In this document: positions 3,287 through 30,348 of the stretch, one piece after another
Layout: every line of letters begins with the position of its first letter
Numbering within the stretch: position 1 is the first letter of the stretch
Notes under the pieces: model-generated
Database searches by the model: none
Told to the model about the DNA's origin: nothing
Seen by the model: the letters and a program-made list of their open reading frames with translations, nothing else
Position numbers and translations under genes: made by a program
Source of the DNA: a virus
Taxonomy: Duplodnaviria; Caudoviricetes
Virus record (IMG/VR): IMGVR_UViG_3300017785_001899
Coordinates: 1-32,365 of that record
Strand: one strand, 5' to 3'
Length of the DNA stretch: 32,365 bases

Positions 3287-3544
3287 TTAGAGTGGAAGTT
3301 CTTTGAGTGTTTTCATCGGCATCTGTTTGGGTTCTTTATCTTCAAGACAGATGTTGAGAAGGATGGATCTGAACTGGACAGCGCCATGAATCTGCTCTGC
3401 TGAACAACCTCGTTCAGCCAGCGCAGCCTCTGAAAAGATCATAGCCGTTTTCATCAGAGGCGAGTTAATCATGTCTGCCAATTCCGCCACAGCGGGAGCG
3501 TCAAACACCTTCTGGAAATGTTCCTTAGCGGATAAAGCAATCAT
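3287..3544 (-). CDS. Small helical protein between portal and scaffold (position of Bbp19-like proteins)
   Basis: 85-aa ORF in the usual portal-small protein-scaffold position, preceded by its own promoter-like element. Confidence 0.7.
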   Translation of the reverse strand: MIALSAKEHFQKVFDAPAVAELADMINSPLMKTAMIFSEAALAERGCSAEQIHGAVQFRSILLNICLEDKEPKQMPMKTLKELPL

Positions 3545-3581
3545 TGAGACGACAATAACCCTATTAGCAGATTAGTGTCAA
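3545..3581 (-). promoter_or_regulatory. Sigma70-type promoter, probably leaderless
   Basis: TTGACA (3581-3576, overlapping the portal TGA), 18 nt, TATTGT (3557-3552), 7 nt, ATG 3544. Confidence 0.6.
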
Positions 3582-5917: not shown

Positions 5918-6648
5918 ACAATTCCTTGTTCTCTTTTCTGGCGGCGAGTGAGGCGAGGAAGCTGATCCTCATTGCTGGGTGTTTCAGTCATGTTCTCAGC
6001 GAATATACCCATCTTGTCGCCGTGAACAAGAACAGCGCTGTTGGAGATACTGGATAGGCTCTCCACAGTCGAGATGTTGAGGTATTGGATCATGTCGGTT
6101 GGAGTCGCCCGGCGCACAACCTCTGTTGATGTAATCAGCGGGAACGGAGCATCACCCTGACACAGTTTATCCAACTCGAAACTTGCACCTGTGAAATAGA
6201 CACCGCATCGGGCCATGAACTTCTGACCACCGGGCTGAGATGAGATGAGTCCGAGATACTTCCTTGGCTGCGCGTCGTAGGCTTCTGCCAAGTCTTTCAT
6301 CCACGATGGCTTCACAGGGACGCAATCAGGTTCGAGCCACACCCAAGGCCAGCGGAACTGGTGCATGGCCATCATCGCTGCGTGACGGAACAGATTATTC
6401 ATCTGCCTGAACTTGTCGTTCAGATACTGCTCCGCAACCGTGGGGGCAATTGTTTCTTCAACGGTTTCATAAGCGAGTTCCGCTGCGATCTTGACCTTCA
6501 TTCGCATCTCGGCGTGAACGTCATCATTCACAACCAGAAGAGCGTGTCCGATGGATTTCTTTCCATTCAGGCGATACACATGGTCACAGGCGCGTTCTGC
6601 TTGAACAGCATCGTTAGCGCAGTAGGGGATTACAACAAGGAGTTTCAC
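5914..6648 (-). CDS. Putative GT-A fold glycosyltransferase
   Basis: N-terminal beta strand KLLVVIPY, WVWLEPDCVP (DxD-equivalent) and a C-terminal VLVHGDK. Start moved from the track's 6666 to GTG 6648, which overlaps the upstream TGA (GTGA). Confidence 0.55.
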   Translation of the reverse strand: MKLLVVIPYCANDAVQAERACDHVYRLNGKKSIGHALLVVNDDVHAEMRMKVKIAAELAYETVEETIAPTVAEQYLNDKFRQMNNLFRHAAMMAMHQFRWPWVWLEPDCVPVKPSWMKDLAEAYDAQPRKYLGLISSQPGGQKFMARCGVYFTGASFELDKLCQGDAPFPLITSTEVVRRATPTDMIQYLNISTVESLSSISNSAVLVHGDKMGIFAENMTETPSNEDQLPRLTRRQKREQGIV

Positions 6649-7013
6649 GGTTTCAATTTCCAACAATGTGACGGAAGAGCAGATCGCTCTGCTGCGGTTA
6701 AATGTTTAGCTACCCTGATCTGCGGCTCCCAAATAAGAAGCCTAAGAACACACCCACAAGACTCGCACTTGTGAAGCTGCTTTTCTCCATTAACTCGAAG
6801 TGATGCGTCGTTCTTGATCTCAAGAATCTTGCGGGCAAAATCAGCCCCGGCGCTTGTGGCGAACCCGACTTCGACATTGTTTGGACACGTCAAGCAAACG
6901 TCGGCGCGAGATTGAGCCTCTTCTTTAGGAACAATAATTGCACCAGAGCCAAGCCAAGCTGTGATGGCCTCAACCCCTCCGGCAACTTGATATGCTTTTT
7001 CGAGGAGTGTCAT
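6645..7013 (-). CDS. Cys-rich putative zinc-binding protein
   Basis: R..VCLTCP, CESCGC and LPSHCW motifs. ATGA-coupled to the upstream gene. Confidence 0.75.
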   Translation of the reverse strand: MTLLEKAYQVAGGVEAITAWLGSGAIIVPKEEAQSRADVCLTCPNNVEVGFATSAGADFARKILEIKNDASLRVNGEKQLHKCESCGCVLRLLIWEPQIRVAKHLTAAERSALPSHCWKLKP

Positions 7014-7426
7014 TGGCGTTCAGCACCGCAAGCTTTGCATTTGTATCCAGTAATGCGCTGACCACCACAGGTCGGGCAGTAGATCGGATCAGTCTCTGTC
7101 GCGCCACAGACACAAGATCCACCCGGCCCGCCAGCGCTTGCACTGACCTGAACAGTCGGCGGCATACCGGGATCGTCAGGGCCACCAACGAACAGCCACG
7201 GCATCTGAGCGTTCTTTTGGGCGAAGATCTCCTGAACTATGCTATCGAAGCCTCCAGCGCCTTCAGGATAAAGCTTTGGATTGGCTTCGCGATGAGCGCC
7301 AACCTTAGCGGCGATCATCTCGGCGTTCCCCTCGTAGCCGTTGAAGATCATTCCAGTTTTGGGATCTTGGAACGGAAACCCACCGGGAGGATACCCTGCG
7401 TTTGGATTCTTCAGTTGCAGACTCAT
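7010..7426 (-). CDS. Hypothetical protein with C-terminal zinc ribbon
   Basis: PPGGFPFQDPKTG N-terminus and CVCG, CPTCGG, CKACG motifs. ATGA overlap with the stop of the giant gene. Confidence 0.75.
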   Translation of the reverse strand: MSLQLKNPNAGYPPGGFPFQDPKTGMIFNGYEGNAEMIAAKVGAHREANPKLYPEGAGGFDSIVQEIFAQKNAQMPWLFVGGPDDPGMPPTVQVSASAGGPGGSCVCGATETDPIYCPTCGGQRITGYKCKACGAERQ

Positions 7427-10400
7427 TTTCTGTATTCCTTAATTACTTTTCCTTTTGCGTCCAGAGCTTCTGGATCAATCTTTTCTTGAATGTCCATTTT
7501 CACTTCGTCGCGGATCGGAGCGAGGGATTCTTTGAAATACTCTTCGTATTCATCAGGTGTGACTGTCTTGAGATAATCAGCATCAACAAGCATCACCTCT
7601 CGCCACCGCTTGATGACAGTAGTTTGATACTCATAGCTCTCCTTTGGCAAGTCCTTAGCAGATAATTGTTGACCGTTCTTGATCCAAGTTGGAGACGGAT
7701 CTGGATGATGCGGGAACCCGCCCTTTGAAATAATGGATGAAAGGGCGGCAACCACTGGATCTCTCTTCGCCTTAGCTGCGACGATTCGAGATTGGGGCGT
7801 GAGCATGTTCTCGACTGGTAATCCAGCCATTCCGTATTCAGGGCCTTCACCAACCAGCCTTCTAACAAATGGAAATCCACGAATCCAATAATCAATCCCG
7901 CTTGTTGGCTTATATGTGTTCGGATCAAAGAACGTGTCAATTTCACGGAGGGTTGAATTGAATGGGATAAGTCCCGCCACGTTTCCAGCCTGCTGCGCGA
8001 CGAGCCTGTTTAGGGCCGACGCGCTTTCATCCGTGTTCATTGCTGAGATGCCAAGGGTTCTGGATAAACCGCTAACCACGCTGAGATCTTTGATGTAGAA
8101 CAGACCAGAAGCCCACGCATCAACCATTCTCGTCATGGATTCGTCTGGCGACATGCGCTTACCATCCTTGCGCTCCTTGTCCCGCATGTTTCCGATCATC
8201 GCCAGAGCGCCACCGAACGGAAGGTTTCCGTAGTTGATCCAGCGACCACCGACACGGATCGAGAGCGGACGCTCACCTGCCTCAATCTTGTCCTTCCTCT
8301 GCTGGGGTGTGAGTCCATACCACGATCCAGACACATCAAACTTGTCCTCATCATCGTCGCCGCCACCACGAGTCATGGCGTAAGCGATTGCCGCGAGAGC
8401 AAGCCCGCTCACCTGTGCCGCTGCGATGAGCCTGCGGCGATCATCAGGGATTGGGTTTCCTTCATTGTCCAAGATTCCAAACACCCTAGACCAGTGCATG
8501 TGTGGAGCCTTCTTCCCGATGATCGCACGAGCGTAATTCACACCACCCACGATGGGCATCCAGTTGGAAGCGCTCTGAGTCATGTTGATGGCAGCACGAG
8601 CAAAGGCGAGTCCAGCAGCGGTCTTTGTTACGAACGCTGTGAACGCTGCGGCTGGCTTGCTCGATCCAGTTCCCATCTGTATTGCGCGAGGCATTGATTC
8701 GAGCAGGCGATAGACGACACCACCCCATCCGACAGGTTGAGCGTTGAGCGCTGCGATCTCACCAAGAACAGTGGCGTTGTCTTTGACCTGCTGGCTGATT
8801 CCAGCCTCAAGTATCTCAAGCTGGCGAGCGCGGACATCAACCCACTTGGCGTCAGGCCCAAGCTCTGCCTGAGCCTGCTTCTTGGCCTGTGCTGATTTCT
8901 CCTTGTCGAAGCGTGTCATCGCCTTCTGAAGCTCTTCAGGGCTGTCGAGGAGCGCGTTGTAGATCACGCCGGATCCGCGAGTTCCGATTGCTCCAACGTA
9001 GTCCAGACCGACAACAGCGCGGCGAACGTAGCTTGTGAGTCCAAGCGCCTTCTGCCAGTTGTTTCCGTGCTTCAGCCAACCTTCGAGAGAGTCGAGCTTG
9101 CCTTGACCTGAGAGCAGTCTGTTGATGTTTCCAGAGAACTCGGCGCGGCGAGTGTAGTCACCAGTCTTGAACACGTCCCAGCCGTTCGCGACACCTTCGA
9201 GAGAGTCAGATAGGAACGCTTGCAGGATTCTACCAGCGGTGCCGGGCCTGCGCTTCAAGATCGCTGCGTCCATCGCTTGCTGTGCCGCCATGATCGCGCC
9301 GTGGATCCATGATCCTGTGAGGATCGCGGTCAGGGTTCGAGTTCCAGACAGAGCGTTGTTATACCAGTAGTCCCGAACGATGTCCAAGGGGTGAGCAGGA
9401 GTTGACTGCTGGATCACGTCAATCATCTGCTGGAGAATCTTGTTCTGGAGAACACCCTCCGGCTTGGTTTGAGCCTCCTGAGCGAGCTTGGTGAGCTTTG
9501 TGGCTGCTTCACCTGTGAGAGATGGAAGCCCAAGCTCTTTGGCAAATGCGTTCAGGAAAGCTGAGTCGTCGAGCGTTCCGAGGTTGGCCTGACGGATGAG
9601 TTCGGGGAGAACTTTCTTGAACAGCTTCTCTCCAGCCTCGACAGTTGGGAGCTTGATCCGCTTTGCGAACTCGCGTTTGAAAACCTGCATACGAGCGGCT
9701 TCCCACGCCTTGCTCAGTGCGTTCTCAAGCATCACAGATTGCTCAGGTGTCAGACCCTGAAGCTTCGGATGCTTTCTGATCTCAGCAAGGAGATGCTCTC
9801 TGCGCTCTTTCTGTGTGGCTCTGCTCTCGTCCAAGAAAAGTTCAGACCAGTTGATGCCACCTTCTGATGCTGCCTTGTTGAGGATCGCAGCTATCTTTGA
9901 GTCGCTTTTCAGCAACGCTGCGGTGAGCGCGGACTGCTTCTCTTTTTCCTTCTGGAGCTTCCACTGCTTCCTGATCTCGATCTCACGCTTGACGATTGAT
10001 GTGAGGATTCTGCGCTTGGTTGCAGCAATGCCAATGTTCTCAAGTGTCGCATCAAATTCAGATTCTTTGATGTCTCCATTGAGCATCCCCTTCACAGCCT
10101 CTTTCACGCCATTGGCCTGCTTCGCTCTTTCGGCTGGGGGAGTGTCTGACTGAGACTTGGCGAACTCGCTGATTACGGCATCAACCTGATTCTCTGCCGT
10201 AGCACCGAGGCGCAAGGCGATCATGGCCTGCGCTCTGAGCTTCCGCATCTCGGCCTGATTCTTCTTTCTGTCCTGAGCCTCTTTCGGCTTTGCATCATCC
10301 CACTGCTTTCTGATCGCTCGCTCACGCTGAGAAACCGAAAGGAGAATGTCGGTTGTGCCTTTGGCAATTCCCAACATATCCATCGTGGATGAGAACTCGG

Positions 10401-13400
10401 AATCTGTGATGTCGCCAAGCACGAACCACTTCACAACTTCTTTGACGCTGGCATCGGCTTTCTTGGGCCAACTCAGAGTGTCCGATTGTGACTTTGCAAA
10501 TTCGTTGATGATCCTTTGAGCCAAGCCCTCGGCTTCGCTTTCCTCGATCTCGTCCTGAACCTCTTCGCCAGCCTCTTGAGTTGCCGTCCTTGTTGTTCCA
10601 GAAACAACCTCTTCAGCGGACTGTCCTTCAGGGAGTCCGAACGCTGCGGCCCAAGCTTTCTGTGCGAGTCCACGGAACGCCAGAACCGGAGACATGAAGC
10701 CAAGCTCTTCTCCGAACACCTTGCGGGCTTCGAGAGTTTGAGCAACGACACTTCCCTCCTGTTGAGCGAGAGACTTGGCCCGATCCATCAACCTCCACAA
10801 CTCAGCAACCTCTGCCGGGTTCTTGGATGTCCCGATCTTGGCGAACATGCGCTTCATCACAGCGGCTATGGTTGCGGACACGTTCTGCTGGCTCAGTCCC
10901 GGAACAGACTTTCCAGATGCGAACTGGGCGATGCTGTCTATCACTTCCGAGTTCGGGGTGTATTCGATGAACTTTTTGGCATCAGCCATCTGCTGCTGAC
11001 GATCTGTTGCTGTGTAGTCCCCGGTAAAGAATCTGCCCTGAGTCGCTTTACGCTGCTGCTCTTTCTCAGCTTCAGTGAGTCCGGGAAGTTCTGGCTGATC
11101 CGCGAACGAGAACGATGCGTCTTTGCGCTTCGGGTTTTCGATCAACTCTTCCGGCTTGAACACTTCACCGTTCTCTTGAGTGATCGTGATGTCGCCATCA
11201 TCGAACACGACGTAGTTATAAGTGACTTTAGGTTTTGAAATTACTGTGTCGTAGCCTTCAGCCTCAAGCTCTTCCTGACGCGCCATCGCCTCTTCCCTAT
11301 CAGAAAGCGTTTCGCTTTTACCATCATACTCAATAACCCAACCCGACTGACGACTCCCCTGATCCAGAAATTTGATTCCCTTGATTCCGAGAGACAGGAG
11401 AAACTCAGACACAGCCTTGTTGCCGTTGAGTTGGTATCCAAGATTTTCGTAAAATTCTCCTGCGGATTGCCTATAACCCGGAAGTTTAGTTCCAGCGCTT
11501 AAAAATTCTCTAATGGTTACGGCTGTAAAATAATTGCTAGGGCTATTTTCGTCTGGGTTGTCAAACAACATGCCACTCTTTTCAACGTAATCGTGAAGCT
11601 TGTTGTAAATGCCTTCAGGAAGATCAGCAGCAGACCCTCCATAATCCATCGTATTTTCTGGATCGAAATTGATCTCGACGGTGTAGAGATTGCCAGCCTT
11701 CTGCTCGATCTTTTTACCACGGAGTTCCACCATCTTATTCAGAACAGACGACCAATACTTTGATGACTGTCCACTTAAATTGGAAATTTTTGAAGCGTAA
11801 GCCTCGGCGCGATCTTGCCCCATCAGAAGTATCTTTTCGATAGCGATGTTGACTGGATCAAGCGGCTTGTCTGTCGCTATTTGTTTTCCATCAACCCAAT
11901 AATCAGGAGTGGAAAGCGTGTTTCTGTAATGATTCGCCGTTCTCCGTTCCTGAGCAAAGTAAAGTCCCCATCCATAGACCTGTGCGCCTTCACCAGTTCC
12001 AATCCTGTCGGTTCTGAACCGATCTTTGATCTTGTGGGGTGTTCCATGATAGCCCGTCATCTTCAGGCTTGGAGCAAAGATCGTGGCGTTGCCAGCAACG
12101 ATTGTGTCTTGGCTCATCAGCTTGTTCATCGCTGAATCAAGCAGAACCCGGATGTCGTTTTCAGAAACTGTTTTTACCCATCCAGCATCACGCAAGAACT
12201 GACGGAACATTGCGACGATCTTGTTCCACAGGTTCGGATCGTTCGTGGGGTTCTCAGAAAGGTTCGCTATGAACTCCCTGCCCAAGCGGATTTCAGATCC
12301 GTTCCTGTAACTCTTCCGCATCTTTTCCATCAACGGATGGTCTTTGAAAGAGTCATAAACCTGCTGCATGAACCCATCGAGCCTCTCGCCAAGAGTGGAG
12401 TCAGTCGCAAAGTGTCCAGCCTGCTCGTGAAGCCATGTCGCCCTTGCTTCTGCGAGAGACGACATCATGCTGGCAACGATATAAACCTTGCCGTCGTAGA
12501 GAACGCCACCGATCAGCGCTGGATTTCCACCCTGAGCATAAGCCAACTGGTGAAGCTCATCAGGAAGGTCATTGTATGTGTTCACCACAACCACTGGCAC
12601 AGCAGATGGGAAGTCTGCCTGAAGATCCATCAACTCTCGCTGAACAGATTCTCTGGTGACAGGCTCTTTCTCGGCCCAAGACTCTTCTGTGGCCTGTTCT
12701 TGAGACAGGCGAAGTGCGCGATTCAGAAGCCTGCGCTTTATGACTTCGAGAGTTTTCTTTGGAGAAACAGCCTTCCCAACTTCTCCAAAGCGGTTAGTCT
12801 CCGCTCCGGTGGATTGCTCTTCTCGAACAGATCCTGTTCGCTCTGGTTCTTCAAATAAGTCTCGCTGTTTTCTGCCAATTGATTTTGCTGCGTCGGCATA
12901 GCTGGCAGGCTCTGCGCGTTTGGACGTTGCACCAAGCTTTCCATAAACTTCCTTTTCGAGATACCACAACACAGCCTGAAGGTCTGCGTTTGTGAGATTG
13001 ATTCCCTTACCCTTCAGGATCTGTTGAGCCTTGTTCACCGAGTTTCGGATGAAGTCACGCTCGCTCGCGTTTGCGGGAGCCTCGTTCATTCCGAAGAACT
13101 CTTCAGCGAGACGTTGAGATGCTCGATTGATGTCGCTGCGATCCCTGAATCCGTTCGCTGTGTATTCGATCAGTTTCTTCTTCGCGAAGTCCAGAAGTGG
13201 GCCGGGGTTGTCAGCTTCTGCGTATGGATCGAATGTTCCGCTCTTGATCGCTGCGAGAATCCGCTTCGCATCAGCGCGAAGCTGTGTTGATCCCGGAACA
13301 CTCTTGAGAACCGATGTCAGGTTGGCGATCTGGCGAGGGATCGCAGCCAGTGAAGCCTCTGTGAGAGTTCCTCGATAGCGGTTGAATGTCCGCATGAACC

Positions 13401-16400
13401 AGCGATCCATCGTGACTGGATCGAAGTTGCCGGAAAGGTTCTGATAGAACCCACCACCGATCTTCGGGCCGAACACGAGAGATCCAAATGTTTCGTGAGA
13501 TGATTTCTCTCCGGTGATGTTCAGCCCGGCAGCGCGAAGCTCTCCGACTGTGAACTTTCCACTGAGGAACTTCGGGAGATTCTCAACACCCAACACGCCT
13601 ATCAACTTATCGAGCATCTTCAGCCCGTCGTTGATTGCGTTCTTGTTCACCCCACCCCAATTTCCATCAACCTCAACATTTCCAGACTGCTTCCACTTCC
13701 CGTAAAGCTCATCTGCGCGAGTGAAGTTTGACTGAACATCCTGACCGTTGCTGGTGATCGCGATCATCGCACGGATGATTGCCTGCCTGCCCTTGTCGCC
13801 GTCGAGATCCGGGTGGCGCTCGATAAGTGATCGCATGGCTGATCTCATCTGAGATCCATACCATCCGACAGCTTTCGAGTTCTTGCCAACCGCATACTCA
13901 ACCTCTGACGCCATAGCAGAAGCGATCTTCTTGGCGTTCTCTTCGGTGAGTTCTCGAAGCGCACCAAAGGCTTCAGCCACGCGACGGGATAGATGGTCTG
14001 CGACGGCAAAGACTTTAGAGTATCCAGAAGCACCTTCAGCCTTGTCGTCTGCCGATAACTCGAAATCTACGCGCTGCGGTGGCTTGATTCCTTTTTGAGG
14101 CCAACCAGACAGGACATCTATTGCGGTTCTGTTCGGGGAACGACCAGCCATCGAGAAATCCGCTTTTCCAGATCCGGGGAGAGCTTTGAAAACTGCGGCA
14201 ACGCTGAAGTCTCCGTTGTAGTAACCAACGTATCCAGCCTCTGAGATCAGACGCTCGTAGATGGTATTGACAGCTTGATCGTATCTTTCTCCAAAGTGAC
14301 GCGGAAAGCGCTTCTCGGCTTCATCCTGAGCTTTCTCATAAATGTCGTCAGGATCGCTCTTGTAATCGTAAAGATGGTCGGCGTTGATTTCGACATCGTG
14401 CCGTTTAGGGCCAAGTCCCTGCTCAGGGGAATACCCGGATAATCCGTAATAGCTTCTGGCAGGAAAATCGTTAGGGTATTCGGCCTTTCGCAGACGCTCC
14501 GCACCTTGGATTCCTTTTCCATGATACTTTGGATCAATCTTTTTCTTGGTGAGATCAACATTGCTCCAATGCGAAATCGTTACTCTCCCCCCGCGCTCGC
14601 CGGGAACAAGCTTTCTGGCTTTGCCTGCGAGAGTTCTTGGTCGAGAGCTTTTAGCCCCCGGCTTTTCTGTTCTGAGCGCGAAGCTTGCTTCTGCTCCGGT
14701 GTTTGCTGTTCCGGCTGTGGCTGCTGTTGATTGTTGTCCATAAGGTATGTTAGCACTTTTCTGTTGAGTGTCAAACCGAGTAGCCCAACTTGGAAGAAGA
14801 GCAACTTTTTGAACCGCATAAGGACGGTCTTTTGGGCTGATGTTCTTTCGTCTCTGTCCGTCGTAATTTTGAGATCCGAAATTGACCCACGAGTTTTGCC
14901 CACGAGTCTCAGTCGTTAAGGCCAGTTGAGCCAATGGTGAAAACATCTGGCTGTGCTTTATCCAAGCGTTCTCTTCTCCTCTTGGCCCGAACTGGAAATC
15001 TTCAGCAGCGTGTCCATAAAGATCGTGGATAGCACGAAGCTTGTCGTTCGCTGTGATTCCGTTCTGGTCTGGAACATTGAAAAGTGGGTGTGGTTCTCCA
15101 CCTTGGAAGAAATAAAGATGGTTATTCTCACGAATGTCGCGAGACATCTCTTCCGAGTTTGCGTATGGCTGTCCGGGTTCAGTCCAAGACTCGAAGGTGA
15201 CTCCAAGATCATTAACAGCGTGATCCCACTGAGCGTTTATCTCCTTCTCAAGTTGACGATAGGCGGGAACAGCTTTTTCATCAAAGACAGGAAGCGCGTC
15301 ATACGCTGTGGCAATTGCCCTTGCTACCGACTCTTTAACTTTAGCGTAGAGTCCCTTCTTTATCGGAGGGAGTCCAACCGAGGCAGCGTAGCGATCTGAA
15401 GCCGCTATTACTTCTTGATTGGGGACTGAGCCTTTCCTTGGCCCTTCACTACTATCTTCTTGCCGCCCGGTTTCCACCCCTTCGGCGGGCGATGAAACGG
15501 CTGGCTTGATTCCTGACCCTGCGCTGGTTTGTTCGACATAAGGTATGTTAGCACTTGTTTGTTTAGTGTCAACCGAAGCTGCGGCTTGAGCCTTCAGTTT
15601 TTCAAAATCTGCCCGCATCGCTTCTTGGACGGCATTTGATTTGTCCTGAAGGGCCTGCGGAAGGGATTCGAGCGATCCACCCGGATTGAGCGGTTTATCA
15701 GCAAATGAAAAATCAGCGCCTTTCTGCTTAGGATCGGCTCCCCCGTATTTATTAACAGGGGTTAAGGACTTTTCCAATACTTGAGATGGGTTGAAAACCG
15801 CTATTACAGAATGTTTCCCGACACCACCTCGGCGTACACCTCCCAAGTAAGAGATGGCGTCGAAGCCCATCGCTTGCACCATTTGCCCGGCTGCTGGTTT
15901 TGCACCGTCGCGAAAATCAATTGGGCCAACAGATCCCATGTTTTCATTACCACTACGACTGTATCGGTAATAGAAATACTCAGCCGTGCTGACAAGGCTT
16001 TTATACAGATCAAGACCAGACGCTTCGGGTGGTATTTTGTTTTTTATTGTGGTGGCTATTTCAGGAGGTAGCTTGGACAACGCTTCAGCCAACTCCTCTT
16101 GGGATATTGAGCGCTCCATGTCGAGTGGATTTTTAACATCCAAAAATGCTGAGACAACACCCGGAGAAGCTGGAGACTCCAACTGCTCTTTGGTAAATTC
16201 AGGAGTTCCGAAGAAGTCTCTCTGCTCGGTTGGCTTCGTGGAGTATCCTTGAGGCTGCAATCCAACCAAGCTACGAAGTCGGTTTCGGATTGGTTGCCCC
16301 GCTGCCGCTGACCACTTATCCGTGAAGTAAATCATCGGCCCAAACAAGCTGTCCTTGTTCAGTCGGTCTAGCTTGAAATCGCCAGCGTCTTTAATGTTCC

Positions 16401-18150
16401 CAGCAATGTAAGATCCGTGGAAAAATCCCTTCGGAGAACCGTCTCTATTTTTTACAGATGGGCTTGCACCGCTGAGTCGGGTCGTGGTTTCCGGTGATGG
16501 TTTTTTAGAAGCTTCAGCAAACGAGAAGTCAGCACCATTGTCCTCATTGAACGATGCGCGAACAGCTTTGGCTTTGTTTTCCAGAGCCTTGATGTCCATC
16601 AGAGCATCTTGGCTGATGGTGAATGTTCCCTGCCTGTTTCCTTGATCGTCTTTGAGAGTGAACTGGAGAAGATCTCTTTTCTTACCTGACAGATCAGGAA
16701 CTCGATTGTCGAAATCCATGTTCTGATCGCGAATGGTCTGAGCGATCTGGATCGCCTCTTTGTAGAACTGAGGCATTGCCATCTCAGTGGTGACGCGCTG
16801 CATGTCCTCATCTGTTTGAGGATTGCTCGCAACACCAGCGTCCGATCTCGCTTGAGATTTATCTCGCAACTGGATCAATTCAGCAAGCTGTTCATCCGAT
16901 GCGTTGAGTCCGAGATCAACATTCTGCTTGTTGAACGACTGACCTTTTGCGCGGAACTCGTCCGCTGACATATCGGCAACAGATCGAGCGAAGTCCATCG
17001 CTTCTGGAGCGGCTTGTTTCTGAGGCTTGGCTTCAGCCGCTCTGCTCCTGTTGAACTCTTCTGCCACTGCGTCGAGAGTGGCTTGGTTCTGGTCAACTCC
17101 AGCAGGCGGGCTTGAGCCTCCTCCAGATGAAGCAAAAACACCACCAGTAACGGAGCCAGTTAAAGCCCCACTCGCAGCAGCCTCTGAAACACCCTCCTGC
17201 CACGGCTTTCCGCTAATGAGATTTGAGAACACCTGCTCAACAGCGGATTGGCCCATCTCCTCAACAAGCCCCTCTGAAACCATAGCCTTCACTATTCTTT
17301 CGGCTGCTGATTTTCTGGCTCCTGTTGTTAAAGCCCCAGCCATTGCTGAGTCCACGTCGGCAACTCCAAGCTTTTGAGAAACCTTTCCACCGACAACGCT
17401 GAGTAAAGATGTTGCGACACCGCTGGCAAGAGATAGCAGGGACTGCTCAAGTGTGAGAAGTCCACTGTCAGATTGTTCGCGGGCTTGTGTTGCTGTGCTA
17501 CCAGCGCCAGTCACACCCTCGCCAGCAGCGCCAGCAATGATCTGACCAAGCTTTCCAGCCTTGGCGAGAGTTGGGATAAGGGCGATCCCCTTCGACACCG
17601 CACCCCCGGCGAGCATCTGCGGTAAAGATTCAATAACCTGACCAGCTATCGAGGTTGGGTTTTTCAGTAGTGCCTCAATAGTTCCAGAAAAACCCTTCGC
17701 GTCTGAAACATCTTTGTTCGCAGCTTGCTGCTCATCGCTGTGAAGTTTCTCAAGAAACTCGCCAGTGATCTTCGGGCTGTATCCTGTGGCCCGCTCCAAG
17801 GCGTCACCAACTCCACCACCCGCCACAATGTCTGCAAGGCCAGTCGCTGCGGCTGGAACACTGACGACGCCTTTAGCAAGGCTTACAAGAGGATCTCGAA
17901 CAAGCGTGTTTCCAACATCGCCCAAAACTCTTCCTGTGGATTCCTTTTGATCTCCACCAACAACAGGAGCGAATCCACCAAGAGGATCTGATAAAGAATC
18001 GAGCGGGCCTAAGTTTGGGTATCCCGGAAGCCCTATTGGGCGCGAGACTGGCTGAGTCGCTTCAAGAGACAGATCCTCATCAATCTCGTCAAAGACGTTC
18101 TTTTTCTTTGAGGCTCTATCGGCGTCAATCTCATCAAACACATTCATCAC
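7423..18150 (-). CDS. Giant polyvalent internal virion (ejection) protein, 3575 aa, with ART-like, metallopeptidase-like and HhH-glycosylase-like modules
   Basis: Modules in order: Gly/Ala-rich hydrophobic N-region (~17970-17120); ART-PolyVal-like module 1 (FFHGS, GPMIYFT, FLDVKNPLD, GFDAI, AVFNPSQV; ~16450-15780); HDLYGH domain (~15400-14790); divergent ART-like module (ISHWS, RSYYG, LYD, GYVGY; ~14580-14190); HhH-glycosylase-like domain (VTMDRW, LQAVLW; ~13990-12900); MPTase-like LHEQAGH...EFIA (~12660-12130); ART-PolyVal-like module 2 (YHGTPH, GEGAQVYGWGLYFA, YNYVVFD; ~12060-11190); long helical C-terminal region. Located after tail and small ejection genes. Confidence 0.85.
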   Translation of the reverse strand: MMNVFDEIDADRASKKKNVFDEIDEDLSLEATQPVSRPIGLPGYPNLGPLDSLSDPLGGFAPVVGGDQKESTGRVLGDVGNTLVRDPLVSLAKGVVSVPAAATGLADIVAGGGVGDALERATGYSPKITGEFLEKLHSDEQQAANKDVSDAKGFSGTIEALLKNPTSIAGQVIESLPQMLAGGAVSKGIALIPTLAKAGKLGQIIAGAAGEGVTGAGSTATQAREQSDSGLLTLEQSLLSLASGVATSLLSVVGGKVSQKLGVADVDSAMAGALTTGARKSAAERIVKAMVSEGLVEEMGQSAVEQVFSNLISGKPWQEGVSEAAASGALTGSVTGGVFASSGGGSSPPAGVDQNQATLDAVAEEFNRSRAAEAKPQKQAAPEAMDFARSVADMSADEFRAKGQSFNKQNVDLGLNASDEQLAELIQLRDKSQARSDAGVASNPQTDEDMQRVTTEMAMPQFYKEAIQIAQTIRDQNMDFDNRVPDLSGKKRDLLQFTLKDDQGNRQGTFTISQDALMDIKALENKAKAVRASFNEDNGADFSFAEASKKPSPETTTRLSGASPSVKNRDGSPKGFFHGSYIAGNIKDAGDFKLDRLNKDSLFGPMIYFTDKWSAAAGQPIRNRLRSLVGLQPQGYSTKPTEQRDFFGTPEFTKEQLESPASPGVVSAFLDVKNPLDMERSISQEELAEALSKLPPEIATTIKNKIPPEASGLDLYKSLVSTAEYFYYRYSRSGNENMGSVGPIDFRDGAKPAAGQMVQAMGFDAISYLGGVRRGGVGKHSVIAVFNPSQVLEKSLTPVNKYGGADPKQKGADFSFADKPLNPGGSLESLPQALQDKSNAVQEAMRADFEKLKAQAAASVDTKQTSANIPYVEQTSAGSGIKPAVSSPAEGVETGRQEDSSEGPRKGSVPNQEVIAASDRYAASVGLPPIKKGLYAKVKESVARAIATAYDALPVFDEKAVPAYRQLEKEINAQWDHAVNDLGVTFESWTEPGQPYANSEEMSRDIRENNHLYFFQGGEPHPLFNVPDQNGITANDKLRAIHDLYGHAAEDFQFGPRGEENAWIKHSQMFSPLAQLALTTETRGQNSWVNFGSQNYDGQRRKNISPKDRPYAVQKVALLPSWATRFDTQQKSANIPYGQQSTAATAGTANTGAEASFALRTEKPGAKSSRPRTLAGKARKLVPGERGGRVTISHWSNVDLTKKKIDPKYHGKGIQGAERLRKAEYPNDFPARSYYGLSGYSPEQGLGPKRHDVEINADHLYDYKSDPDDIYEKAQDEAEKRFPRHFGERYDQAVNTIYERLISEAGYVGYYNGDFSVAAVFKALPGSGKADFSMAGRSPNRTAIDVLSGWPQKGIKPPQRVDFELSADDKAEGASGYSKVFAVADHLSRRVAEAFGALRELTEENAKKIASAMASEVEYAVGKNSKAVGWYGSQMRSAMRSLIERHPDLDGDKGRQAIIRAMIAITSNGQDVQSNFTRADELYGKWKQSGNVEVDGNWGGVNKNAINDGLKMLDKLIGVLGVENLPKFLSGKFTVGELRAAGLNITGEKSSHETFGSLVFGPKIGGGFYQNLSGNFDPVTMDRWFMRTFNRYRGTLTEASLAAIPRQIANLTSVLKSVPGSTQLRADAKRILAAIKSGTFDPYAEADNPGPLLDFAKKKLIEYTANGFRDRSDINRASQRLAEEFFGMNEAPANASERDFIRNSVNKAQQILKGKGINLTNADLQAVLWYLEKEVYGKLGATSKRAEPASYADAAKSIGRKQRDLFEEPERTGSVREEQSTGAETNRFGEVGKAVSPKKTLEVIKRRLLNRALRLSQEQATEESWAEKEPVTRESVQRELMDLQADFPSAVPVVVVNTYNDLPDELHQLAYAQGGNPALIGGVLYDGKVYIVASMMSSLAEARATWLHEQAGHFATDSTLGERLDGFMQQVYDSFKDHPLMEKMRKSYRNGSEIRLGREFIANLSENPTNDPNLWNKIVAMFRQFLRDAGWVKTVSENDIRVLLDSAMNKLMSQDTIVAGNATIFAPSLKMTGYHGTPHKIKDRFRTDRIGTGEGAQVYGWGLYFAQERRTANHYRNTLSTPDYWVDGKQIATDKPLDPVNIAIEKILLMGQDRAEAYASKISNLSGQSSKYWSSVLNKMVELRGKKIEQKAGNLYTVEINFDPENTMDYGGSAADLPEGIYNKLHDYVEKSGMLFDNPDENSPSNYFTAVTIREFLSAGTKLPGYRQSAGEFYENLGYQLNGNKAVSEFLLSLGIKGIKFLDQGSRQSGWVIEYDGKSETLSDREEAMARQEELEAEGYDTVISKPKVTYNYVVFDDGDITITQENGEVFKPEELIENPKRKDASFSFADQPELPGLTEAEKEQQRKATQGRFFTGDYTATDRQQQMADAKKFIEYTPNSEVIDSIAQFASGKSVPGLSQQNVSATIAAVMKRMFAKIGTSKNPAEVAELWRLMDRAKSLAQQEGSVVAQTLEARKVFGEELGFMSPVLAFRGLAQKAWAAAFGLPEGQSAEEVVSGTTRTATQEAGEEVQDEIEESEAEGLAQRIINEFAKSQSDTLSWPKKADASVKEVVKWFVLGDITDSEFSSTMDMLGIAKGTTDILLSVSQRERAIRKQWDDAKPKEAQDRKKNQAEMRKLRAQAMIALRLGATAENQVDAVISEFAKSQSDTPPAERAKQANGVKEAVKGMLNGDIKESEFDATLENIGIAATKRRILTSIVKREIEIRKQWKLQKEKEKQSALTAALLKSDSKIAAILNKAASEGGINWSELFLDESRATQKERREHLLAEIRKHPKLQGLTPEQSVMLENALSKAWEAARMQVFKREFAKRIKLPTVEAGEKLFKKVLPELIRQANLGTLDDSAFLNAFAKELGLPSLTGEAATKLTKLAQEAQTKPEGVLQNKILQQMIDVIQQSTPAHPLDIVRDYWYNNALSGTRTLTAILTGSWIHGAIMAAQQAMDAAILKRRPGTAGRILQAFLSDSLEGVANGWDVFKTGDYTRRAEFSGNINRLLSGQGKLDSLEGWLKHGNNWQKALGLTSYVRRAVVGLDYVGAIGTRGSGVIYNALLDSPEELQKAMTRFDKEKSAQAKKQAQAELGPDAKWVDVRARQLEILEAGISQQVKDNATVLGEIAALNAQPVGWGGVVYRLLESMPRAIQMGTGSSKPAAAFTAFVTKTAAGLAFARAAINMTQSASNWMPIVGGVNYARAIIGKKAPHMHWSRVFGILDNEGNPIPDDRRRLIAAAQVSGLALAAIAYAMTRGGGDDDEDKFDVSGSWYGLTPQQRKDKIEAGERPLSIRVGGRWINYGNLPFGGALAMIGNMRDKERKDGKRMSPDESMTRMVDAWASGLFYIKDLSVVSGLSRTLGISAMNTDESASALNRLVAQQAGNVAGLIPFNSTLREIDTFFDPNTYKPTSGIDYWIRGFPFVRRLVGEGPEYGMAGLPVENMLTPQSRIVAAKAKRDPVVAALSSIISKGGFPHHPDPSPTWIKNGQQLSAKDLPKESYEYQTTVIKRWREVMLVDADYLKTVTPDEYEEYFKESLAPIRDEVKMDIQEKIDPEALDAKGKVIKEYRK
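9961..10520 (-). repeat. Intragenic tandem duplication of a ~75-aa helical unit
   Basis: IINEFAKSQSDT...VKEVVK..VLGDITDSEF...LGIAK....ILLS...RERAIRKQW versus VISEFAKSQSDT...VKEAVK.MLNGDIKESEF...IGIAA....ILTS...REIEIRKQW. Confidence 0.85.
14580..14741 (-). CDS. Nested out-of-frame small ORF B (53 aa, MDNNQQQPQPEQQTPEQKQASRSEQKSRGLKALDQELSQAKPESLFPASAGGE)
   Basis: ATG lies 5 nt after the -10 of the internal promoter, in the +1 frame of the giant gene. TAA at 14582-14580 falls just before the ISHWS strand of the ART-like module. Confidence 0.55.
   Translation of the reverse strand: MDNNQQQPQPEQQTPEQKQASRSEQKSRGLKALDQELSQAKPESLFPASAGGE
14742..14774 (-). promoter_or_regulatory. Internal sigma70-type promoter, copy B
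   Basis: TTGACA (14774-14769), 16 nt ending in TGC, TAACAT (14752-14747), ACCTT, ATG 14741. Confidence 0.7.
15408..15539 (-). CDS. Nested out-of-frame small ORF A (43 aa, MSNKPAQGQESSQPFHRPPKGWKPGGKKIVVKGQGKAQSPIKK)
   Basis: ATG lies 5 nt after the -10 of the internal promoter, in the +1 frame of the giant gene. It ends in a tandem TAA TAG just before the HDLYGH domain and is below the ORF-track size cutoff. Confidence 0.55.
   Translation of the reverse strand: MSNKPAQGQESSQPFHRPPKGWKPGGKKIVVKGQGKAQSPIKK
15540..15572 (-). promoter_or_regulatory. Internal sigma70-type promoter, copy A
   Basis: TTGACA (15572-15567), 16 nt ending in TGC, TAACAT (15550-15545), ACCTT, ATG 15539. Confidence 0.7.
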
Positions 18151-18962
18151 TCAAGAGAGTATCCAGATTGGATCGCCCACTTAGCAGCAACAGCCCTGTC
18201 ACCACCTGCGCGATTCTCTAGTTCAATCATAAGCTCTTTCGGGATTCGACCATTCCTTGAATACTTCTTACTGGTTCCAAACACATTTTCAGGCCCATCA
18301 GGAGACTCGCGAACATTGTTTGGATCACCGATGTATCCATAGCTTTCAAGCGGCTTCTGGATTGGAGATTCGAGAGCGGGGGCTGGCGCAGCAGCGGCTT
18401 TCGGTGTGCTTCTGAACAACTCACGAGCGCCCCGCGCTGCCTGAAGAGCTTTATGAGCCTCTTCGCGCTGCCGGGGTGTTTTAGCATCCAAGACGGATTT
18501 GCTCGCTATCTTGATAGCATCGTCATGCTCTTCTCTGGTCTGTCTGTGGATGGGATCTTCCCTCTCAGGAGCGTCACCAGCGTAAGCAATGCTTTGCTCT
18601 CCGGTGTTGGGGTCTATCGCAATAACTATATCCTCTCCGTTTTTACCCTTCACTTTGAAAGTTCTAGGAGCGGAAGATTTTGGCTGCTGCGGGGATCGCC
18701 CACCGAAAGACTGAGTGAGTGGATCAATCAGTTCCTGACGAAGGTTCTGAGGCGAATCCTCTTCGAGAATGTTTCCGAAGGCGTCATTTCTTGGAGCTTT
18801 GCGGCGAGCATCATATTCAGCAAGCGCCTGACCCATCTGCTTCTCAAGATCGCCAGCCACGGAATACGAAAGCCCATCAGCAGACATGCCATCGCTTCTG
18901 CGTGATCGCAACACTTCCCGATCCATCGGATCGGCCAGTTCTCTGTTGATTGGTCGTGCCAT
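18147..18962 (-). CDS. Putative internal virion/ejection protein (271 aa)
   Basis: Charged low-complexity protein directly upstream of the giant gene, with the C-terminal AGGDRAVAAKWAIQSGY motif. Start moved from the track's 19061 to ATG 18962 (TAA-AATAT-ATG), which removes the overlap with the upstream gene. Confidence 0.65.
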   Translation of the reverse strand: MARPINRELADPMDREVLRSRRSDGMSADGLSYSVAGDLEKQMGQALAEYDARRKAPRNDAFGNILEEDSPQNLRQELIDPLTQSFGGRSPQQPKSSAPRTFKVKGKNGEDIVIAIDPNTGEQSIAYAGDAPEREDPIHRQTREEHDDAIKIASKSVLDAKTPRQREEAHKALQAARGARELFRSTPKAAAAPAPALESPIQKPLESYGYIGDPNNVRESPDGPENVFGTSKKYSRNGRIPKELMIELENRAGGDRAVAAKWAIQSGYSLE

Positions 18963-18967
18963 ATATT

Positions 18968-19471
18968 TTAATTGATGTTTCTCACGCCACCACCGATACC
19001 CCAAGAAGAACTCGATGGCCTGCCGTTGTAGGCGTCCCACCCTGAGCTTACCACCCCCCACTTCGGCTTGTTTGCTTCTCTCTCCTTCGCGAGCATACCC
19101 TGCCGCGCAAGACTGTTCGCAGCATTGGATTCATTCTGCCTGAACAAATTGTTCTGATCGAACTGTCTCTGATCCATCTGCTGCCCAGTTGTGGGAGCGA
19201 CAGTCCCAGAATAGCCAGTGACAAGCTTGAGCAGGTCATCAATCCCGCGCTGCTTCATCTCGTCGCTGCGTTTGTTGTGCAGATCGTATCCGAACGCATT
19301 GGACACACCGCTGCCGGGCATACCAGTTTTGACCCCAAACTTGGCAGCGCTGTTCTGTGATGGGCCTGTTGATGTTCCGCCCTTGAGCAGGTTTTCAATG
19401 ATGGACGACGCTGAAGATGTAAGCCCACTGAAGCCGGGGATGGATTGCTCGATAATGTTGTTGTATGCCAT
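18968..19471 (-). CDS. Putative small internal virion/ejection protein
   Basis: Gly/Ser/Gln-rich 167-aa protein (QQMDQRQFDQN) between the adaptor-like gene and the larger ejection genes. Confidence 0.6.
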   Translation of the reverse strand: MAYNNIIEQSIPGFSGLTSSASSIIENLLKGGTSTGPSQNSAAKFGVKTGMPGSGVSNAFGYDLHNKRSDEMKQRGIDDLLKLVTGYSGTVAPTTGQQMDQRQFDQNNLFRQNESNAANSLARQGMLAKEREANKPKWGVVSSGWDAYNGRPSSSSWGIGGGVRNIN

Positions 19472-19474
19472 AAC

Positions 19475-20524
19475 TCAAATTGGATTCTGGATCATCCTGT
19501 TACTGCCCATGACGTTCACGCGCACCGAGAGTTGATCCGATGGAGATTTGTCTCGAAGCTCAAAGTTCAATTCACGGATCGCTTTGAGCATGTATTTCTC
19601 AGCGTTCTCAGAATCTCCAGCCTCATCATACTTGATGGATTGGATCGCCATTGCAAGAGCGTCGAAGTCCGAGATGAGGAGGAAGTCATTCTCGCTCTGA
19701 ACGGGGATATACTGGAGCTTCACGATAGCTTCCATCTGCCACGTCTTTACGTCGTATTCATCTACCGAGTAAGGAGTGCAGGCCAGCGCAGGAATCGCCA
19801 TGTGACGATAGCTTGGATTCGTCTCGTTCGGTTCGTATGTGGCGAGCATCCGATACTTGAGAGTCACTGTGTCGTATTCGTAGAGATAGGCCATGCCCTG
19901 AGTGGCTTCACGAACGACAGATGTGATCCGAGTTACGAGCGGGGTCGGAGCGGGGATGCTTGGAGAAGCTGCCGTGAGTGTGACACCGTATTGCCAAACT
20001 CCAGAAACCTGCTCCTGAAGCGGCTGGTTTCCGTATTGAGTTCCGAAGAGTGTGATCGTCTTACCAACGTCTTGAGCTTTGACGACATGGTAGCGGATCA
20101 GTTTTCCTTCGTTGCCTGAGATCTGGTTGAAAACAGGAACGGTTGTTCCATCAATTCCAGCCGGGTTGTATCCACCAGCAGCAACACCGTATCCGAATCC
20201 GCTTCCATTGATCGCATTGTTCCAGCCACCAATGTTTCCGGGAGAGAGAATTGACCACCAATTATTTCGGATCTGCATGTAGTCAGAATTGCACAGGCGA
20301 AGTCCGAGAACTGTTCCGACGTGACGAGGAAAAACAACGTCGCAACCACCAGTGCAGAGACGCATCGCAACTTCAGTTCCGAACCAGCCGCCCCGCTTCA
20401 TCAAGCGGCGAGTCGCTCGGTTCACATAATCAGCAAACTGCTCCGTGTCGGCACAGACGCCTGAGATGTTTTTTATCCCAATGTCGTTTCGAGCATCGGA
20501 CAGTTGATATGTAAAGGCGCTCAT
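19475..20524 (-). CDS. Putative head-tail adaptor / tail tubular protein A-like
   Basis: N-terminal helices (YVNRATRRL) and C-terminal helices (DALAMAIQSIKYDE...AEKYMLKAIREL) around a beta core, the typical adaptor layout. Located in the tail module. Confidence 0.55.
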   Translation of the reverse strand: MSAFTYQLSDARNDIGIKNISGVCADTEQFADYVNRATRRLMKRGGWFGTEVAMRLCTGGCDVVFPRHVGTVLGLRLCNSDYMQIRNNWWSILSPGNIGGWNNAINGSGFGYGVAAGGYNPAGIDGTTVPVFNQISGNEGKLIRYHVVKAQDVGKTITLFGTQYGNQPLQEQVSGVWQYGVTLTAASPSIPAPTPLVTRITSVVREATQGMAYLYEYDTVTLKYRMLATYEPNETNPSYRHMAIPALACTPYSVDEYDVKTWQMEAIVKLQYIPVQSENDFLLISDFDALAMAIQSIKYDEAGDSENAEKYMLKAIRELNFELRDKSPSDQLSVRVNVMGSNRMIQNPI

Positions 20525-28536: not shown

Positions 28537-30348
28537 ATGTCGAAAACGAGAGAGAAATACGGATTGAATTGGCCCATCGAAAACGATGATCTCAAGATCG
28601 AGCTTTGGATGATCCGAAAAGGTGATGAGTGGTTGAAGGAAAATGGACGATCACTCTCGTTCCACTACGAAGAGGCTAAGAAAATCCTGTGGCCGGAACT
28701 GGATGCTCACCGCTGGCACAACATCTGTCGCGACTCCATTCTTGAGAACAAGGTTTGTGTGCTGATGGGTTGTGGATCGTCTGGAAAAACAAACGCAGCC
28801 GCTTGGATCAGCCTGCTCGACTACTTTGCTTGGCCGAAAGAGACGTGCGTTCTGGTTTGCTCGACAGATGTTCGCGGGTTGAAGAAGCGCGTGTGGGGTG
28901 AAGTGACGATGCTGTGGGAAAAAGCGATCCAGAAGTTCGATTACCTTCCCGGAAACCTTCTCGACAGCGCAATAGCGATCACAACCGACGACATGGACGA
29001 CATCGAGTTCGGAGAAAGGAAGTCTCGTGACATGCGGCAGGGAATTTTCGGTATCCCTTGCGTCCAAGGTGGAAAGTTTGTCGGGCTTTCAAAGTTCATC
29101 GGCGTGAAACAGAAGCGAATGAGACTTGTGGCTGACGAGGCTTCGGCCATGAACGACTCGTTTCTGTCCAGCTTCTCGAACCTGAACAAGAACGAGGACT
29201 TCAGAGCTATTGTTCTTGGAAACCCGAACGACATCCACGATCCGCTCGGTAAAGCAGCAGAGCCTCTGGGTGGTTGGACTGATGAGTATCTCGAACCGAC
29301 CAAGACACGCACTTGGAAAACTCGTTTTATGAATGGGCTGTGCGTGAACCTTGTCGGAATTGACAGCCCGAACCACGACTTCCCAGCAGATCAGCCGACG
29401 AAATACAAATACCTCATCAGCAAAGAAAAGATTGATGAGACTCTCTCGTTCTTCTCGAAAGATTCTGTTGAGTATTTCTCGCAGTGCGTCGGAACAATGA
29501 AGATCGGAACAATGGCTCGTCGAATCCTGACTCGCGAGCTATGTGAAAGATTCGGAGCGCAGACTCAAGCGATCTGGAAGAACGACAAGAAAACAAAGGT
29601 GTATTTCTTGGACGCATCATACGGTGGCGACAGGGCTGTGTGTGGTGGCGCTGAGTTTGGCGAGGACGTGAACGGAAAGATCGTGATCTCGTTCTACCCA
29701 CAGAAAATTATCCCGGTTGTTGTCGGTGGAGAGAACGTCGAGGATCAACTCGCCAAGTTTGTGAAGCAGGACTGTGAGGCTCTTGGAATACCACCGAGCA
29801 GCATGGGACATGATGCAACTGGACGAGGAAGTTTGGGAACTGCTCTGGCCCGAATCTGGTCTGCCGACACAAACCCAATCGAGAGCGGTGGTGTTCCGAG
29901 TGATCGTCCTGTGTCGCTCGATCTTTTCACAACAGATGAAGCGACAGGTCAGAGACGGCTCAAGCTGTGCAAAGAATTTTATGATCGCAAGGTGAGCGAG
30001 TTCTGGTTCTGCGTCAGATACGCAGTCGAAGCAGGACAGATCCGGGATCTTCCAGAAGATGCGATGGAGGAGTTGTGCGCGAGGAAGTGGGACATCCTCA
30101 AGAACGGGCTTCACTCAGTTGAGGTTAAGGACGGGACAAGAACAAAGCCGGGAATGAAGCAACGAACTGGAAAATCTCCTGACCACGGTGACTGCGCTGC
30201 TGGTGTGATCGAGATGGCCCGAAGGAAAGGATTCCAGATCTCAAAGCTTGCGATGGAGGACAAGAAAGTTTTTGGAAAGAATTGGATCGAGCAGGACATG
30301 AAAAAGTCCATGAAGCTCCAGAAAGAAAGACAGCTTCAATCCGTTTAA
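28537..30348 (+). CDS. terL: Terminase large subunit
   Basis: Walker A GCGSSGKT, Walker B RLVADEAS, coupling motif VLGNP, RNase H-like FLDASYGGD and C-terminal GKSPDHGD. Confidence 0.9.
   Translation: MSKTREKYGLNWPIENDDLKIELWMIRKGDEWLKENGRSLSFHYEEAKKILWPELDAHRWHNICRDSILENKVCVLMGCGSSGKTNAAAWISLLDYFAWPKETCVLVCSTDVRGLKKRVWGEVTMLWEKAIQKFDYLPGNLLDSAIAITTDDMDDIEFGERKSRDMRQGIFGIPCVQGGKFVGLSKFIGVKQKRMRLVADEASAMNDSFLSSFSNLNKNEDFRAIVLGNPNDIHDPLGKAAEPLGGWTDEYLEPTKTRTWKTRFMNGLCVNLVGIDSPNHDFPADQPTKYKYLISKEKIDETLSFFSKDSVEYFSQCVGTMKIGTMARRILTRELCERFGAQTQAIWKNDKKTKVYFLDASYGGDRAVCGGAEFGEDVNGKIVISFYPQKIIPVVVGGENVEDQLAKFVKQDCEALGIPPSSMGHDATGRGSLGTALARIWSADTNPIESGGVPSDRPVSLDLFTTDEATGQRRLKLCKEFYDRKVSEFWFCVRYAVEAGQIRDLPEDAMEELCARKWDILKNGLHSVEVKDGTRTKPGMKQRTGKSPDHGDCAAGVIEMARRKGFQISKLAMEDKKVFGKNWIEQDMKKSMKLQKERQLQSV

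Follow-up and report, generated by a model that had tools for sequence, protein, structure and literature searches.

Probable overprinted small genes paired with effector-type domains in a giant phage polyvalent-protein gene

We analysed IMG/VR virus record IMGVR_UViG_3300017785_001899 (Duplodnaviria; Caudoviricetes), referred to here as the window: 32,365 nucleotides (nt) that make up the entire contig, a phage fragment that encodes a DnaB helicase and also has a virion module and a gene of 3,575 codons for a giant protein. A short open reading frame (ORF) nested in the +1 frame of this giant gene, ORF1, is probably a real, unannotated, overprinted gene, and two further nested frames, ORF2 and ORF3, are probably two more. 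Comparison of related sequences indicates that selection acts on ORF1 as protein in the +1 frame and ties ORF1 to the domain that follows it, D1. ORF1 overlaps giant residues 871-915 and terminates at the first residues of D1.

7423..18150, minus strand: giant polyvalent protein gene, 3,575 amino acids (aa), an ORF in the virion module; ART-PolyVal PF18760, E 3.4e-10
15408..15539, minus strand: nested ORF1, 43 aa, +1 frame, predicted leaderless; motif FHRPPKGW at 15497-15474
14782..15423, minus strand: domain D1, giant residues about 910-1123, HDxxGH...GEENAW; helical, weakly zincin-like

Conservation of the ORF1 peptide beside D1

With D1 as the query we collected 14 + 80 + 80 + 80 loci and five annotated regions, each set of 80 consisting of the best among the confirmed stretches listed (584, 212 and 573). 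After removal of the window's contig and of duplicates there were 231 loci including the window, 223 of them with sufficient upstream DNA. We divided these into a close clade A and a distant clade B at a profile score of 315, where both the scores and the tree part. Upstream of D1 we found the motif [FY]xRPPxGW, with a core of acidic residues followed by [FY]-x-R-P-P. Between -120 and +30 nt of the D1 start, the core was present in the +1 frame at 20 of the 22 clade-A loci in which D1 is embedded (0 in the giant frame, 1 in the +2 frame), compared with 3 of 907 background windows elsewhere in the same genes. It was present at 0 of 127 embedded clade-B loci, and with stand-alone D1 at 1 of 12 clade-A and 0 of 62 clade-B loci. 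The D1 sequences of the relatives that keep the motif are only about 50-65% identical to that of the window.

Codon usage at the 11 loci with the Gly-Trp form of the motif indicates that it is the +1 frame that is conserved as protein. Read in that frame, codon differences comprise 151 synonymous and 177 non-synonymous changes; read in the giant frame, the figures are 27 and 320. Entropy by +1 codon position is 0.56/0.52/1.35 over ORF1 (eight lineages, anchor codons removed), whereas over the D1 core the pattern is reversed, with values of 0.22/0.05/1.3 by giant codon position.

Because the core motif pattern was composed after the peptides had been seen, we ran the test again, this time with a profile that drew on other sequences alone. 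These came from short D1 homologues, of which we took the best 120 of 317; 116 could be scored. In 7 of the 116 the motif forms an in-frame C-terminal tail of D1, and these seven are among the 18 that have tails of at least 30 residues. A profile made from the seven tails scored at least 15 upstream of D1 in the +1 frame of 19 of the 22 embedded clade-A loci and in 0 of 22 for each of the other two frames; the window scores 22.6, and in embedded clade B the count was 1 of 127. One of the two clade-A exceptions, L028, has the motif in frame and located after D1. In a quick tree of 74 rows, four nested loci (L029, L030, L031 and L184) fall with the tailed forms in one subclade (Shimodaira-Hasegawa-like approximate likelihood ratio test support, 86). 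Where a segment is found either fused to a domain or encoded apart as its neighbour, physical partnership is usually indicated; since the motif occurs both as a fused tail and as a separate neighbour, the ORF1 peptide and D1 are likely to be partners of this kind.

The edges of the conserved region are consistent with a movable unit. Loci L001, L002 and L014 have different upstream domains, and sequence identity among them sets in about 55 nt ahead of the peptide's ATG. This shared edge points to a cassette of start signals, peptide and D1, and on such sequence evidence the domain and its small gene behave as an accreted and probably portable unit.

D1 itself lacks the catalytic Glu of the HExxH/HExxxH motif by which zincin-like metallopeptidases are defined (available passages of PMC5512222), having instead an invariant HDxxGH with Asp for Glu. 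We estimate that D1 occurs in about 1,500 viral and 2,100 metagenome stretches, and it is also found in mycobacteriophage Bxz1 gp104. In cellular contigs with stand-alone D1 (L101, L182, L183, L185, L188, L194, L198, L199 and L206), small genes of two or three recurring kinds follow the domain, and these may possibly be alternative partners; in L194, excisionase-like and integrase-like genes, recognized by eye, come after it.

Start signals of the nested frames

15545..15572, minus strand: promoter-like site 1, sigma70-type (TTGACA-16-TG-extended TAACAT), by consensus match
14747..14774, minus strand: promoter-like site 2, near-copy of site 1, by consensus match
3287..3581, minus strand: ordinary gene of 85 aa following a portal-like gene, its promoter geometry that of the nested copies (TTGACACTAA at 3581), by consensus match

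Every promoter call here is a consensus match. The initial annotation correctly placed two 36-bp minus-strand copies (15572-15537 and 14774-14739; 33 of 36 positions identical) of the layout TTGACA-16-TAACAT-ACCTT-ATG with a TG extension, and their ATGs do open short +1 ORFs, of 43 aa (ORF1) and 53 aa (ORF2), that end at the first residues of the next domain. All three mismatches lie in the spacer, as it had noted; two alter the giant protein (K/Q and T/K) and the other is a silent third position. Such placement has P = 0.078, which is weak evidence by itself. Copy 2 is likely a recent duplicate of copy 1, because the likeness reaches past the ATG into the first codons (54 nt, 81%). The two sites rank highest among six promoter-like sites within 6500-19500, where shuffles yield 7.0 +/- 2.2, and a promoter score of 10/12 is reached by 2 of 156 ATGs in the giant gene, namely the starts of ORF1 and ORF2.

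Five ordinary genes had been credited with the same geometry. Among the 19 ordinary starts that we scored, one has it in full (3544; TTGACA-18-TATTGT-7-ATG, score 10), and at three more (28537 on the plus strand, 28495 and 24525) a weak -35 accompanies a TG-extended -10-like site. In the 85-aa gene, the first ten bases of the promoter are those of nested copy 1, and the promoter overlaps the stop codon of the preceding gene; a family search with this gene gave no match. Further TTGACA...ATG sites within giant ORFs, opening +1 frames of at least 70 codons, lie at L034:5164 and L025:2230.

Among the D1 relatives, the window's exact promoter sequence is not kept. Five loci (L001, L002, L008, L030 and L184) have GGAG, a Shine-Dalgarno sequence, 6-9 nt ahead of the ATG; L010 and L011 have TTGACA-17-CAnnnT-7-ATG; and L197 has a TG-extended TACAAT 8 nt before the ATG. 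The nested frame of L029 is without an ATG, and at five further loci the ATGs are only distant. Given such differences in start signals among loci, we conclude that what is conserved is the peptide rather than the promoter sequence. This corrects the proposal that constraint acts on the DNA and not on the giant-frame peptide: in the relatives neither the promoter DNA nor the SANIPY peptide of the giant frame is conserved, and the +1 peptide is. Likewise, the expected recurrence in homologues applies to the open +1 frame with its motif, found at 20 of the 22 embedded clade-A loci, and not to the promoter, which varies or is replaced by a Shine-Dalgarno sequence.

ORF2, ORF3 and the neighbouring domains

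14580..14741, minus strand: nested ORF2, 53 aa, +1 frame, motif ELSQAKP; from comparison with L011
14170..14586, minus strand: domain D2, giant residues about 1189-1327, ADP-ribosyltransferase (ART)-like fold
12850..14010, minus strand: domain D3, DUF7178-related; weak DUF7178 matches in 7 of 9 D3 sequences, Atlas score 0.95-0.96
12738..12899, minus strand: nested ORF3, 53 aa (68 aa from an ATG at 12944), +1 frame, after D3; not part of the initial annotation

ORF2 and ORF3 may be domain partners of the same kind as ORF1, on weaker support. ORF2 overlaps giant residues 1137-1191 and terminates at the first residues of D2. Compared with L011, its ELSQAKP motif keeps 7 of 7 residues in the +1 frame despite six synonymous codon changes, and 1 of 7 in the giant frame; among 47 D2 relatives, only 2 show ORF2. 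D2 has conserved His, Tyr and Glu (alignment A3), from which NAD+-dependent activity is predicted, and its nearest folds include toxins whose structures were solved with antitoxins. D3 contains what we take to be a helix-hairpin-helix glycosylase-like motif. A +1 ATG frame of at least 30 codons follows internal D3 in 23 of 26 cases and terminal D3 in 10 of 13, compared with 573 of 2706 background windows; in the terminal cases the +1 frame continues beyond the stop as an ordinary overlapping downstream gene. No promoter-like site was found for ORF3 among the ATGs scored in the giant gene. By eye, the +1 frames after internal D3 in L004 and L224 resemble the separate small gene after terminal D3 in L032, L035 and L036, and the pairs L041/L141 and L019/L116 have further conserved +1 peptides. 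D1, D2 and D3 occur together repeatedly in unrelated giant proteins (L060-L100 and others), often with D2 directly after D1, which hints at a single pathway.

The giant protein as a whole combines several disparate effector-type domains in one polypeptide (PF18760, the ART-fold D2, D1 and D3) and, by its sequence features, fits with the polyvalent proteins of PMC5512222. Its PF18760 match exceeds the Pfam cut-off, a second ART-PolyVal match is weak, and its translation contains a peptidase-like HEQAGH motif. The N-terminus resembles large PHROG families and the C-terminus a PHROG internal virion protein family; this match, together with the position in the virion module, is the basis on which we predict packaging and injection. 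A short ADFSFA-like linker motif repeats between domains at residues 540, 812, 1155, 1331 and 2344 and may mark cassette joints.

Possible roles, related systems and neighbouring genes

We propose that the +1-frame peptides of the linkers, each tied to its neighbouring domain, bind that domain and keep it off, a reading to which we give a probability of roughly 0.55. The C-terminal tail of D1 would be an autoinhibitory segment, and the nested ORF1 peptide would provide that segment in trans, expressed from a promoter or ribosome site of its own, the reason being that a domain lying inside a polyprotein can have neither a free tail nor an immunity gene downstream. Start signals, peptide and domain would transfer between giant genes as a single cassette. 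From host-type promoters the peptide would be made within the producing cell or shortly after the DNA enters, while it would be absent when the giant protein is packaged and injected. We favour an inhibitory partner because separate start signals within a late virion gene are easiest to understand if peptide and domain are needed at different times, and because the fold neighbours of D2 include toxins held by antitoxins. Two points weigh against inhibition: D1 is widespread without the motif (embedded clade B, 0/127; stand-alone clade A, 1/12), and toxicity of the domains is a supposition. A more specific scheme, which we hold tentatively and at a little under even odds, is that each effector domain is a cassette with an antidote overprinted in its linker, that the D1 tail became a separately transcribed trans peptide, and that the phage can thereby assemble and inject a multi-effector protein and afterwards, through promoters read by the host, switch off individual domains.

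The association and fusion evidence suits any obligate partner, and there is perhaps one chance in several that the peptide is a true partner of D1 without being an inhibitor: an activator, a substrate, a chaperone, or an adaptor that takes D1 to its target or to the virion. The motif accompanies virion-borne-looking forms only, not the stand-alone D1 of cells, and the embedded o-spanin described in passages of PMC6139136 is a precedent for a cooperating partner. However, a cooperating segment could presumably stay in frame in the linker, and a promoter or ribosome site of its own would suggest separate timing.

Two further explanations appear improbable. ORF1 could be a leader whose translation is coupled to a restart in the giant frame, the product being a shortened giant protein with its start at D1, in the manner of the internal transcripts of Rhs genes (available passages of PMC7043789). 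Consistent with this, at 11 of 11 loci the giant-frame codon beneath Gly-Trp is one of ATG, GTG and TTG and never CTG (background 44/146), and stand-alone D1 genes start near the Gly-Trp codon. Yet this codon bias is weak with about eight lineages, at least nine nested loci without Gly-Trp retain the acidic-Tyr-Arg-Pro-Pro core, the motif is also found as a C-terminal tail, where restart is impossible, and no stop follows D1, so that the restart product would be about 2,700 residues long. Similarly doubtful is the idea that the peptides are independent early phage products that act on the host and hitchhike with their first-neighbour domain. Host-type promoters, by consensus match, within a late gene would agree with it, as would the same promoter geometry at the ordinary small gene at 3544; it does not explain why the motif accompanies D1 despite differing upstream domains, or why it alternates between an upstream +1 frame and a downstream in-frame tail.

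Decayed relics or chance duplication without a translated product are very unlikely as a general account: recent duplication accounts for the 36-bp identity, and +1 ATG frames of at least 30 codons occur in 21% of background windows, but for ORF1 the synonymous-type variation in the +1 frame and the retention of the motif among D1 sequences about 50-65% identical contradict it. Of the earlier suggestion that the nested units are relics of accreted cassettes, the accretion of a domain-plus-small-gene unit thus stands and the decay does not, although ORF2 or ORF3, taken singly, may possibly be relics.

Returning to inhibitory, overprinted domain partners, no account of polyvalent proteins with nested partner genes turned up in the literature that we searched, largely abstracts and passages of non-subscription papers. 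The polyvalent proteins of Iyer et al. 2017 (PMC5512222) are, in the passages available, like that of the window: giant and multidomain, with ART-PolyVal domains and an HExxGH peptidase-like motif, and located in the virion module. The main text of that paper has no matches for overlap, promoter, linker or low-complexity and gives no description of nested partner genes. PMC7824862 and PMC9503650 also mention polyvalent proteins, and nested genes are not among their available passages. A similar layout is that of the spanin genes Rz and Rz1, which can be embedded, overlapped or separated; embedded Rz1, like ORF1, is a small Pro-rich gene that lies wholly in the +1 frame within its partner's gene and is overlooked by gene callers (passages of PMC6139136). 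Rz1 and Rz, however, are envelope proteins that cooperate in a two-protein lysis complex, with a single pair for each gene, whereas the window would encode several cytoplasmic peptides, one per enzyme-like domain, and one of these also occurs as an in-frame tail. In MuF proteins, according to passages of PMC5576092, a small ORF follows 89.4% of 191 toxin genes; these pairs resemble terminal D3 with its downstream ORF, in that a virion-borne effector domain has a small neighbour ORF. There the toxin is C-terminal and the small gene outside the toxin gene, whereas the window has internal domains with small ORFs nested in another frame, ORF1 being upstream of its domain. Rhs genes, like the giant gene, have promoters within a large effector gene ahead of a domain, but their internal transcripts make an in-frame C-terminal toxin together with a separate downstream immunity gene (type II toxin-antitoxin modules; passages of PMC7043789); in the window the ATG lies in another frame, and what is conserved is the peptide that it would yield.

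If the peptides act as proposed, they would help to explain how a phage can produce a polyprotein in which several internal enzyme domains are potentially self-harming, and they point to a class of small genes in giant virion genes that gene callers have overlooked. Candidate domain-peptide pairs are available, including a natural comparison of cis tail and trans peptide, and for the widespread D1 a specific peptide ligand would provide a way into its function. Should the antidote-cassette scheme be true, the low-complexity linkers of polyvalent proteins would often be a by-product of hidden genes.

Two other genes of the window may be mentioned. The sole large plus-strand gene, at 28537-30348, is an ORF of 603 aa with Walker A/B-like and RNase H-like motifs and a TG-extended TAATGT 7 nt ahead of its ATG; a Pfam search gave no match and a match to PHROG 5902 is weak, and by eye we judge it to be a putative terminase large subunit. 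At 17-1666 on the minus strand is a gene of 549 aa, the N-terminal half of which weakly matches glycosyltransferase family 9, with a second domain besides.
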